A stretch of DNA of 17,568 nucleotides from a virus. Lineage: Duplodnaviria > Heunggongvirae > Uroviricota > Caudoviricetes. Positions 12,001 to 15,000 of the stretch are shown here, in pieces. Within the stretch, counting starts at the first letter, position 1; every line of letters starts with the position of its first letter. The DNA is taken from the IMG/VR virus record IMGVR_UViG_2698536618_000023. One strand, written 5' to 3'. Position numbers: made by a program.

Positions 12001-15000
12001 ATATTCAGAACAACAAAGGATTCAGTCATTGACGCATATTGCATCATCACCCGATGCAGCAATCAGCCAGCTACCTGCCTTACCTGTAAGCTGCTTAATC
12101 AGGGCGAGCAATGACTCAATCTCACCCTCAGTCATTTCACCTGTGTTACCCATCATCAGAGAACAAATAAGTTCTGCCTGCATTGCGCTTTTTGCTGCTT
12201 CATCAACAGTCATATCGGAAAAATCACACATGAATTACTCCTCATCCTGAATACATGTCACTGCGTGGATAATTACGCCGGATAAACCGGCTTTAGCTGA
12301 TTTGTTAATTACTGTGCTGATTGCAGCCTGGACGTTTTCGGCCTTCACGTTCTGCGTGATGCCAACGGTATAGCCGCGCTTGTTAACAGCACGGGAAAAG
12401 ACGCGGAAGGTTTTAAGCATGAGTCACCTCCTGACGGATACGGGCGACAAAAATCAGATGTGCGTGCGGATACAGCCATGTGAAAGGCTCCCAATTTAAT
12501 GTTAAGGAGTCTCGCTACTACGCTGCTAAACATGGTGGCGAGACGTAACAGGGTTAGCAGACTGGCAAATTGGGAAACCAGCGAGCGCAAAGGCTCCCCC
12601 GTTACGCCCCGCCATAATGCGGGTATGGGTAGGTTTACGGACACAAAAAAACCGCTTATCGGATATGGGCGGCTGTCCGCCAATTTATTCAGGCTGCTAA
12701 ACCCGGTCGCCATGTGGGCGACTCCGGCATCATACAGCCCGAAAGAAGAGGCGATCAACATGTTTTTATCCATGTGATGCCTCCTGACGGATACGGGCGG
12801 CGAATACAGCAACGCAACCTGACGGGCAACGGTTACGCGCTTCGCGTTCCGTCCAGGCGGTTACGTGGATGATTTGGGATTCTGACGCGCCAAAGATGAT
12901 AAAGCGCCAGATAAAGGCAGTCTGAGAATGTACGAGGGTAGGGGTAGTAGCCATGTTGGCAGCCTCCTTACAGTGATGAATAACGTCACCGCAGGAGTTC
13001 CTACGCTCACAATGGGCGGTGACACTGGCGGGGGTAGGAATACCGGACTGTAAGGACTCCGGCCTACCTTTCGGTAGCCCCGCCAGCATCACCATTGTTT
13101 GCTGGTGGCGCTGTGCAAAATGCAACTCGTGAAATGACTGGATGGTGCACGAGTACGCACAATACACAACGCCATTGATATGGCGTAAAGCGCTGGCAGA
13201 AAAAAAGACGCTTCTGGCGTCATTTATCGCCTTACAGTTAAACGGGTTCCTACGCCCGATCCCCGTTTTATAAGGGATAGCTTCAGTATATGCCGCTTTT
13301 TTGCTTAAGTGGTCGGATGTGTTGCGAGAAAAGTTTGTGCGAAAAATACCTGCGTTTTCTTTGAAAGCACATAATAACATCACGTTATTTATGTTTATGC
13401 AGTGTGTCGCAAAGCAACCTGAATCATCACGCAAATTACAACCATAAAAAATACCTGCGCTGTGATATGAGGTACTACAGCGCACCGCTTTACGGGTACA
13501 GACAATGACAAATGAAGAACTACAGGAAATCGCATTATCCATACTTGAGCGACAGCGCGAAAAAGCACAACGGCAAAGGAGGTTGTTACTTAATCCACTG
13601 CCACTCACCAGGCCAACACGATTTGCCCTTGAGGCTTTTGTCGAGAAATACCCACGGCGGTTAAAAGCCACTAAAAACCGACCGCCTGGCTGATAGCCTT
13701 GTCCACCAGCTACACTCATGGCATAGTTGGTGATGCGCTTGATTTCCTTTATCTCCACTGGCGACCCTTTCGTGGTCGCCTTTGTTTTGCCTGCCATTCC
13801 TGCATCATGCGGATATTCACGCCGTACAGGGCCACCAGCGCGATAATTTGATAAAGCCTCCTTCTGATAATGCTTAACGTGTTTCATGCGCTCAGCGGCG
13901 AAATGGCTCACGATATGGCGCATGTAATCAGCATGGTTGATGCTCACCTGTGCGAACTTATCCGCAGTATCGATGTACAGGGCGGCAGCGTTGCGGATGT
14001 CAGGCATGTTCACGTTCTCCCAGGCGACGTGCCAGCCAGAATCAAACTGTTCAATATTTACACTTTGGCTCCCCCGTTTCTGGGAATCAAAGTACAAATT
14101 TTCTACAGCCTCAAAATCCACACCTTTTTTAAATCCGTATTCCTCAATACGCCCTTTAATCCAGGTGGTGAAATCACGGCCTACACCGAGCGCTTTATGC
14201 AGTGCGCGTGCGCTGACAACGCCCGTTTCATATCTGCCAATAATGCCAGGTGATACCGGAATAATTGCGGCGAAATCATAATTACGCATGATTCACCCCC
14301 AGAGACGGCGCTGACGTCATCAGGCTGGCGAACGTCTCCATGCGGCGAGCAACTTCCCGCACCGCTTCGGTCGGTGTCATGCCGTTCTGTATCGCCTCGT
14401 TAAATGCTGCCTGCTCGATTTTCTGCATGACTATCAGTAAGCCTAACTGTTGCTCTCCCGCGCTCTGACGCTCGCCTACAGCCAGCCCAGCGAAGCGATT
14501 TTCAGTGCGGGCAAGGTTGATGTAATGGTGACGTTCTGCGCCCAGTGCTTTAAGCCCGTCACGGCTTTCGTGATAGCCTGGCAGATATTCGCGACGGACT
14601 GGTTCAGCGGCGCGATGCTTCGCGAATGCCTTCGTAACATCCAGCTTGAACTGGTTGATACGTTCTGCGTCACGCCCACGGATAACGCGTAACAGATAGT
14701 CAAGCTGTAGCTCATTCAGCAAATAACTAATTTCAGGACGACCGCGCTTGCGGCCAGATTTTCCCGATTTCAAATAGGTTAATTCCTTGACTGACTGGCG
14801 AGGCAGTGAGCCAAGCTCGCGCAATCTGGATTGATGAGATTTAATCGTCGCAATGATACTTTCGTGTTGTATTCCTGCTCGCTCAGAAATAACGCGGGAA
14901 TCAATACGCGACTCTGCTTTGTGGCGAATCAATATATCGTTCTGGCTGATTTCAGGCTGAATGAAGCCCTGCCCCTGTACGGGCATATTCGGACGTTTCA

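Follow-up and report, generated by a model that had tools for sequence, protein, structure and literature searches.

Why should a satellite-like island keep a long, stop-free reading frame of odd composition beside a perfectly repeated 20-mer and a cluster of strong hairpins? The question is raised by positions 12427 to 13700 of IMG/VR virus record IMGVR_UViG_2698536618_000023 (Caudoviricetes), of which the whole stretch of 17,568 nucleotides (nt) analyzed here is referred to as the window. The initial annotation of this DNA had suggested an RNA-based control region similar to the immunity system of P4, where a small RNA pairs with repeated target sequences. In our analysis, the region is very probably the immunity ("Bro") zone of an integrative Escherichia coli island resembling a phage-inducible chromosomal island (PICI), whose minus strand carries two complete antisense-RNA switches one after the other, and these switches explain the odd-composition frame, the 20-nt repeat and the hairpin cluster. 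They were recognized through family membership, homology, complementarity, covariation and frame conservation.

A covariance-model search, one of the checks that the initial annotation had proposed, returned exactly two matches at or above the Rfam gathering score in the whole window, both to the C4 antisense RNA family (RF01695; gathering score, 45 bits) and both on the minus strand. We refer to them as C4#1, of the type of c4 in P1 and P7, and C4#2, of the type of CI in P4 (Table 1). Each match covers model positions 1 to 87 of 87. Structure prediction, proposed alongside the search, gave minimum free energy (MFE) folds that reproduce the family structure in both RNAs, with a long closing stem around two hairpins and with the joint a′ and the loop b′ left unpaired. 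Compensatory changes were found in 14 of the 24 C4 stem pairs (alignment of 30 sequences, including P1, P7 and P4). The hairpin with GC stems noticed earlier at about 13026-13085 is real and forms the core of C4#2 (13099-13012). The hairpin 2 loop b′ of C4#2 reads AGUCCUUACAGU and its joint a′ UUCCUAC; in C4#1 the loop is UUUCCCAAUUUG and the joint CUGCUAA, identical to the P7 joint. A single small RNA had been implied; two are present, with different specificities.

Both RNAs have cognate targets nearby. Site names follow the annotated P1 genome, in which "a" pairs with the joint 3′ of hairpin 2 and "b" pairs with the hairpin 2 loop. Within the window, exact complements of the joint (7 nt) and of the loop (7 to 10 nt) of each C4 RNA occur at two places only, on the same strand, and the sites stand at P1-like offsets in both modules. 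No cross-complementarity between the two modules was found. Site b2 of module 1 overlaps the Shine-Dalgarno (SD) sequence AAGGAGG of icd#1, an icd-like gene for a cell-division inhibitor, 11 nt ahead of its ATG at 12954, and b2 of module 2 overlaps the SD sequence GGGAG of the icd#2 start (ATG 12479). Module 1 (13290-12766) is the counterpart of the P4 cI/seqA/seqC/kil region and module 2 (12758-12413) that of P1/P7 c4-icd. Each switch would comprise a promoter and a leader in which a1 and b1 precede an intrinsic terminator, followed by a C4/CI RNA (about 88 nt), by a2 and b2, and by an icd-like gene that has its SD within b2.

Complementarity was followed across related loci. Species-representative genomes gave a single icd relative; hence, IMG/VR contigs (80 viral-contig loci, fetched by similarity to the 62-amino-acid [aa] Icd alone) and loci from E. 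coli assemblies were used. This set contains 58 C4 copies with 24 different a′/b′ combinations. An exact 7-nt complement of "a" is present both upstream and downstream in 58 of 58 copies, and a complement of "b" of 7 to 10 nt in most of them (cognate minima, 5 nt upstream and 4 nt downstream), all at conserved offsets; noncognate matches of at least 7 nt make up 0.7 to 3.5% of comparisons. For module 1, a and b differ between P4, the window and two other islands, yet all three copies match in each. The idea of an RNA pairing with repeated target sites, as in P4 immunity, is borne out by this conserved and covarying complementarity. Two C4 genes are present in 14 of 46 loci, and a megablast search of 5426 complete E. 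coli genomes found relatives of module 2 in 124 and the module 1 type in 19.

Many Icd-like genes in the same collection (L044-L086; e.g., L053 2700-3010 and L045 2600-2880) have no C4 RNA upstream, and in 20 such "C4-less" loci tested an nhmmer C4 profile missed none of the Rfam finds. They carry a divergent small repressor-like gene and a promoter between operator-like repeats (L053 has three copies of GTGGCTGACA), and a short hairpin precedes the SD. In L049, L073 and L083, a repressor-type unit of this kind is followed by a P1-type C4 module, which suggests that control by protein repressors and control by RNA repressors are interchangeable modules.

Table 1. Coordinates of the switch components, reading frames and island genes in the window
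Feature	Position	Strand	Description
C4#2 (P4 CI type)	13012..13099	-	RF01695, 70.3 bits; MFE -49.3 kcal/mol, z = -6.0
C4#1 (P1/P7 c4 type)	12531..12619	-	RF01695, 74.1 bits; MFE -45.8 kcal/mol, z = -5.8
C4#2 target a1	13253-13247	-	GTAGGAA; exact joint complement, 7 nt
C4#2 target b1	13238-13230	-	ACTGTAAGG; loop complement; target also given as ACTGTAAGG(A)
C4#2 target a2	13004-12998	-	GTAGGAA; exact joint complement, 7 nt
C4#2 target b2	12974-12965	-	ACTGTAAGGA; exact loop complement, 10 nt
C4#1 target a1	12700-12694	-	TTAGCAG; joint complement
C4#1 target b1	12686-12680	-	AAATTGG; loop complement; target also given as AAATTGG(GA)
C4#1 target a2	12529-12523	-	TTAGCAG; joint complement
C4#1 target b2	12497-12489	-	AAATTGGGA; loop complement
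Module 1 downstream target zone	12965..13004	-	Exact complements; positions conserved, sequences covary across loci
Module 2 downstream target zone	12477..12529	-	Exact complements of C4#1
Module 1 leader (isrK/P4 seqA type)	13200..13278	-	Rfam isrK, 50.0 bits, E = 2.7e-9
Module 2 leader	12645..12722	-	isrK 37.6 bits and c4-a1b1 32.4 bits, both below gathering score
Candidate module 1 -10, TATACT	13285..13290	-	6 nt before position 1 of the isrK-like leader; putative assignment
Module 2 promoter, TTGATC-18 nt-TATGAT	12729..12758	-	Inside ORF#2; counterpart of P1 promoter P1c4 (formerly P51b)
507-codon read-through open reading frame (ORF)	12766..14289	-	AntA N-terminal fragment fused in frame to eta-like ORF, ending as icd#1
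icd#1	12766..12954	-	62 aa, Icd-like (kil equivalent); nested at the 3′ end of the long ORF
20-mer copy 1	12780..12799	-	Final icd#1 codons A-R-I-R-Q-E and SD GGAGG of ORF#2
ORF#2	12345..12773	-	142 aa from ATG 12773; second read-through ORF across leader 2, C4#1 and its targets
104-nt deletion junction in icd#2	12462..12469	-	Between 8-bp direct repeats CCGCACGC; relative to L001 (98% identical)
20-mer copy 2	12427..12446	-	Leftover icd#2 3′ end A-R-I-R-Q-E-V-T-H-A, stop 12413; SD for the 61-aa ORF
61-aa ORF	12235..12420	-	First gene past both switches; kept in L002 and L005; PHROG 3672
ORF62	13505-13693	+	62 aa, antisense to the read-through ORF; third codon positions coincide
int	16315-17568		Island gene order
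AlpA	15067-15270		Island gene order
Rha	14282-15001		Island gene order
AntA′	12766-14289	-	Island gene order
D5 primase	9786-11609		Domain matches
SSB	8845-9294		Island gene order
ProQ/FinO-family protein	8361-8828	-	Pfam E = 2e-24
Left-part ORFs (recombinase-like, sulphur transport, Q)	1613-3244, 4838-6076, 4133-4531	-	Accessory end

Upstream of each C4 RNA lies a leader that ends in an intrinsic terminator. The module 1 leader consists of a first hairpin, a second hairpin with a1 in its loop, a single-stranded b1, and a terminator hairpin with a U-run (13221-13200). The module 2 leader likewise has a1 in a hairpin loop, followed by a single-stranded b1 and a terminator hairpin with U7 (12672-12645). 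The matches of both leaders to the isrK family (RF01394; gathering score, 50 bits) come from a more permissive, E-value-based Rfam run, in which the module 1 leader scores exactly the gathering score; it is unlisted in the gathering run. The module 1 leader aligns with that of P4, and the module 2 leader with the annotated a1/b1 of P1 and P7. A consensus scan of 12200-14400 found the module 2 promoter as its only sigma-70-like site, and the leader model begins 7 nt past the -10 of this promoter. In P4, a constitutive internal promoter (PLE) lies upstream of seqA. For module 1, the scan found weak candidates only; the geometry of the TATACT hexamer matches that of module 2 and that of the "-10" (TATAGT) annotated before the first leader hairpin in P4 record X02534. 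An exact 13-nt direct repeat (CGCAGGTATTTTT, minus strand) occurs at 13342-13354 and 13447-13459, 105 nt apart. The two copies enclose an AT-rich segment that lies between the start of ORF62 and the candidate leader 1 promoter, and they could be putative operator sites.

A variant that might coexist with the two switches is that the terminated leader RNAs act in trans as activators, in the manner of IsrK in the Salmonella prophage Gifsy-1, either by opening an inactive mRNA or by serving as decoys for the C4 RNAs through a1/b1. IsrK activates translation of orf45-anrP in trans, with orf45 conserved as a nucleotide sequence and not as a protein (PMC4825925), both leaders match the isrK model including its terminator, and a1/b1 are exact copies of a2/b2. 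Against this, the module 2 leader falls below the isrK gathering threshold, and the upstream site in P4 is described as the target by which CI causes early termination (PMC10111431). We regard an activating role of the leaders in trans as unlikely.

The frame that runs through these elements had been described as open and rich in Cys and Ser. The 507-codon ORF is real and its composition atypical, with 11.4% Ser, 6.5% Cys, 8.5% Arg and no Trp in residues 200 to 445. Its eta-like part (usual start, ATG 14007) runs through leader 1, C4#2 and the targets of C4#2. From ATG 14007 to the icd ATG at 12954, 350 codons are free of stops (composition-based probability, 2.6e-8); 0 of 20,000 mononucleotide shuffles stayed open, and the other two frames hold 15 and 28 stops. 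In L002, AntA is complete (282 aa) and its end overlaps the start of the eta-like ORF by 8 nt; the 507 codons are therefore, on sequence comparison, an in-frame antA deletion remnant fused to the eta-like ORF. The remnant is the N-terminal 94 codons (14007-14289, minus strand, in frame with the eta-like ORF, against 3160-4008 in L002) and matches 39 of 68 positions of the AntA profile.

Frame conservation, a further check proposed by the initial annotation, was analyzed in 54 unique contexts picked by icd similarity alone. In 52 of them, the icd-phase frame runs across both C4 and a1/b1, with a median of 215 open codons, against 3 and 2 for the control frames; the two exceptions are probably alleles with the icd#2 deletion described below. 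The ratio of nonsynonymous to synonymous variation (pN/pS) is 0.56 to 0.77 in the eta-like part, 0.76 to 0.99 in the RNA region and 0.32 to 0.66 in icd. Between the window and a 98%-identical relative (H1), a compensated pair of -1/+1 indels has C4#1 read in different frames for about 30 codons, both of them open. The frame therefore appears to be kept translatable while its product is under little constraint. The eta frame of P4 begins ahead of the internal promoter and shares its frame with kil, and translating it keeps termination from occurring (PMC10111431). By analogy, the stop-free frame is most likely more than untranslated RNA and has to be translatable. The initial annotation had named amino acid selection across all 507 codons, or a lack of conserved complementarity, as findings that would speak against RNA control. 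Outside icd, pN/pS lies at 0.56 to 0.99, and the complementarity is conserved.

Could the 507 codons instead encode a functional Ash/Bro-type protein whose sequence matters, the RNA-family matches being incidental? Domain searches place Pfam AntA at aa 25 to 68, Phage_ASH at aa 334 to 455 (E = 3e-19) and the NCBIfam Icd-like family at aa 459 to 502; hundreds of E. coli proteins of 380 to 413 aa, starting MPDI, cover the eta-like frame, and pN/pS is somewhat below 1 in its N-terminal part. However, the Phage_ASH match corresponds to 13290-12925, that is, exactly leader 1, C4#2 and a2/b2, where pN/pS is 0.76 to 0.99. Pfam PF10554 (Phage_ASH) is in effect the translation of a P4-type leader, CI/C4 RNA and targets in the eta frame. 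Variation obeys RNA pairing (stem compensation and three-way covariation of loop and targets) and not protein rules, the compensated frameshift is tolerated, the composition is atypical, and the AntA part is a deletion remnant. The AlphaFold model of the product has a pLDDT (predicted local distance difference test) of 27.9, below 50 throughout, which carries little weight since the 10-sequence alignment behind it is too shallow for evidence. Pfam, NCBIfam and PHROGs gave no match for the N-terminal part of the eta-like ORF, for ORF#2 or for ORF62. Taken together, a sequence-dependent protein is very improbable, and the region is better read as two antisense-RNA switches.

On the opposite strand of the long frame, ORF62 has relatives in ten E. 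coli protein clusters (53 to 98% identity, 56 to 78 aa) with the conserved C-terminus RFALEAFVEKYPRRLK. The pN/pS of its frame is 0.38 to 0.39, compared with 0.48 to 0.84 in the opposite frame, and a strong terminator-like hairpin (13760-13780, plus strand) follows it. No match of ORF62 to a known family was found, and the switch region may thus contain a genuine small gene here. An effect of this antisense frame was considered as the sole cause of the open frame and rejected, as the frame is open for several hundred nt on both sides.

The 20-mer had been put forward as the repeated pairing target of a small RNA, comparable to seqA and seqC with CI in P4, with the segment at 12842-12858 sequestering it. 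A sequence count confirmed two exact copies of CCTCCTGACGGATACGGGCG (plus strand), 353 bp apart, where shuffles lead one to expect 0 matches; at 80% identity, the repeat grows to 41 nt. Read on the minus strand (CGCCCGTATCCGTCAGGAGG), both copies end in the SD sequence GGAGG, with an ATG 6 to 9 nt downstream (12420 and 12773). However, a complementarity search found no complement to the 20-mer in either C4 RNA, and the actual targets lie elsewhere, at fixed offsets, and covary with the RNA. The 20-mer consists of the conserved 3′ end of two icd paralogues, where it codes for A-R-I-R-Q-E, and of the SD for the translationally coupled ORF that follows, and on these grounds it was ruled out as an RNA target. 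Its variation is in keeping with this: of 88 sequences (the window and 87 related loci), 72 have variants, which differ mostly at third codon positions (ATC/ATT, CGT/CGC), with an additional second-position GAG/GGG difference. The commonest variant has ATT for ATC, which is why the exact 20-mer has only 1 match in viral contigs, and in the 98%-identical relative L001 the two copies themselves differ by one base.

Both the MFE fold and the consensus fold computed from 20 homologues predict pairing between the segment at about 12842-12858 and part of the upstream 20-mer, CCUGG (at about 12857) pairing with CAGG of its SD. None of the 23 pairs of this hairpin shows a compensatory change; the changes seen are G-C/G-U switches and two breaks. 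Such a local hairpin might mask the SD until icd has been translated; the 20-mer as the target of a small RNA, sequestered by 12842-12858, has next to nothing left in its favor.

The genes that follow the two C4 RNAs are Icd homologues with 40 to 47% identity to P7 Icd. For icd#1, the identity is 40%, NCBIfam NF033153 matches with E = 1.4e-14, and there are PHROG matches as well. Three 8-nt overlaps of stop and start codons join Rha to AntA′-eta (ATGCGTAA, 14289-14282), icd#1 to ORF#2 (ATGGATAA, 12773-12766), and icd#2 to the 61-aa ORF (ATGCTTAA, 12420-12413), the last of these coupled in the same way in relatives. By comparison with L001, L002 and L004, ORF#2 in relatives has 154 aa and ends as icd#2 at 12413, and its frame is open in all module 2 contexts. 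In the window, icd#2 carries a 104-nt deletion. The junction is also present in L004 (about 5364) and L091, two other E. coli assemblies; therefore, the deletion is a circulating allele and not an assembly error. Past the 61-aa ORF come small ORFs (61, 69 and 63 aa, counting the first) and then the D5-type primase. That the whole region is simply decay, the remains of antA, ash and icd with no present function, is scarcely credible even though the Prokaryotic Genome Annotation Pipeline (PGAP) calls antA and "ash family" partial pseudogenes in the 98%-identical relative and in STEC1585 and both antA and icd#2 carry deletions in the window, since decay cannot yield a 350-codon stop-free frame (P of about 3e-8), an open frame in 52 of 54 contexts, exact cognate targets for 24 specificities or RNAs 25 to 29 bits above the family threshold.

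How might the two switches work together? By analogy with P4 and P1, the internal promoters would give short transcripts during quiescence, which would be processed to C4 RNAs. Each C4 would pair through its a′ joint and b′ loop with its own a2/b2 and so block icd translation, and the untranslated RNA would be terminated ahead of the replication genes in a Rho-dependent manner, as at timm in P4 when kil is left untranslated. When transcription instead comes from the upstream AlpA/Rha operon, ribosomes would follow the read-through ORF, like P4 eta, over leader, C4 and targets; the ATGNNTAA stop/start overlap would hand them to the second read-through ORF across module 2, and translation could override both locks. 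We tentatively propose, with somewhat less than even confidence, a fuller arrangement in which two orthogonal locks, one P4-type cI and one P1/P7-type c4, stand in series and have their own read-through ORFs chained by ATGNNTAA, such that one upstream translation event overrides both. In this arrangement, the specificities would diversify fast and independently (24 among 58 copies), the P1-type module would be adapted to its setting (frame open in islands, closed in P1/P7), and the conserved ORF62 might be an additional, hitherto undescribed component.

Several points weigh against reading the region as two complete switches. Processing of the RNAs, termination by Rho and the override through translation are all carried over from the known systems by analogy. 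Judged by the consensus, the promoter of module 1 is weak, with its -10 TATACT and a poor -35, and was unreported by the scan. A pN/pS below 1 in the eta-like part leaves room for some constraint on the product, and the ORF62 overlap (13505-13693) could contribute to local stop avoidance. Finally, icd#2 is broken by the 104-nt deletion, and ORF#2 is therefore out of phase with the residual icd#2 3′ end and ends at 12345; it overruns the ATG of the 61-aa gene, which prevents the final coupling from operating in the way seen in relatives.

The surrounding genes are those of an island. Their order (int, AlpA, Rha, AntA′, switch region, D5 primase, SSB, ProQ, PerC, Q) is that of Gram-negative PICIs. 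Gene content is mosaic between AlpA and the RNA switch: L002 lacks Rha, and other relatives have an annotated GIY-YIG nuclease gene in the matching segment. ProQ/FinO proteins form an RNA-chaperone family that assists antisense RNAs, and a gene of this family sits in an element whose control region uses antisense RNAs. The left part of the window has a second tyrosine-recombinase-like ORF (543 aa), a membrane protein of a sulphur-transport family and a Q antiterminator gene.

The principle of RNA control has long been known from work on P1/P7 c4 and P4 CI, and the region is an ordinary member of a known, catalogued kind of regulator, whose class Rfam already includes and which earlier work had found in Gram-negative PICIs. 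What the window adds, two module types paired in tandem, is modest. The 20-mer and the open frame that drew attention to the locus are by-products of its architecture, namely, icd paralogues with coupled ORFs and eta-like read-through ORFs. Current annotation shows neither of the two RNA genes nor their targets, and RefSeq has "ash family" or "Icd-like" coding sequences or pseudogenes in their place; no RNA gene is annotated at 12925-13290 (minus strand) or at 2490-2903 of P4 X02534 (L088 1425-1838). This satellite-like island seems to guard its replication genes and cell-division inhibitors by two independent RNA locks of different ancestry, and the large repertoire of loop and target specificities could serve studies of cross-immunity between islands and phages or the design of orthogonal RNA regulators.

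Among known systems, module 1 is closest to P4, with which it aligns from the first leader hairpin to the kil/icd ATG (blastn, 69.8% identity to the P4 "ash" region). Both have two-part targets on both sides of the RNA in the same arrangement, a downstream target that contains the SD of the gene translated first, a long ORF that is in phase with this gene and spans the RNA gene (153 codons in P4), an 8-nt overlap between the stop of the gene in the kil position and the next ATG, and a match to Pfam Phage_ASH, which is named after the P4 "put. ash gene." In contrast to P4, the loop and joint specificities are different, the RNA is followed by a clear homologue of Icd to which P4 Kil has no BLASTP match, the read-through ORF is fused to an AntA fragment, the major ORFs of the island include no sid, delta or psu and follow PICI gene order, and a second module comes after the first.

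That second module resembles P1 and P7, being 81% identical to the P7 c4 region and 76 to 80% identical to that of P1, and it aligns with the annotated P1c4, a1, b1, c4, a2, b2 and icd start in P1 order and spacing. It shares its a′ joint with P7 and the family of its icd gene with P7 Icd. Mature C4 of P1/P7 is an RNA of about 77 nt, cut by RNase P from a longer transcript (PMC5320573). Unlike in P1/P7, there is no C1 operator (Op51/Oc4; its consensus has no match in the window at up to 3 mismatches) and no ant gene after icd. Small ORFs and the D5 primase follow instead, and the only AntA-like sequence is upstream and truncated. The b′ loop differs, and icd#2 is truncated in the window. In P1/P7, a stop closes the icd-phase frame 11 codons ahead of icd; the island has this frame open from the preceding icd stop all through c4.

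The isrK-orf45-anrP region of Gifsy-1 offers a further parallel, in that the isrK model matches leaders before both C4 RNAs and in that a short ORF, conserved as nucleotides and not as protein, is translationally coupled to the next gene (PMC4825925). Here the difference is that IsrK activates in trans by experiment and its downstream gene is antirepressor-like.

The C4 and c4-a1b1 motifs were catalogued in 2010, and in 2023 C4 and isrK Rfam matches were reported in Bro zones of Gram-negative PICIs and the analogy to P4 was drawn (PMC10111431). That paper, in the part available, treats the matches and the P4 analogy in general terms, and modules of P4 and P1 type in series, chained ORFs or a specificity repertoire are not found in that part; a limited literature search likewise found no description of serial P4-type and P1-type modules or of a read-through ORF spanning a P1-type module. 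In its general plan, the island agrees with these PICIs: an integration zone with AlpA is followed by a Bro zone with Rha/AntA-type genes and then by primase and SSB, and the same two Rfam models, C4 and isrK, match inside a Bro-network gene (PMC10111431).

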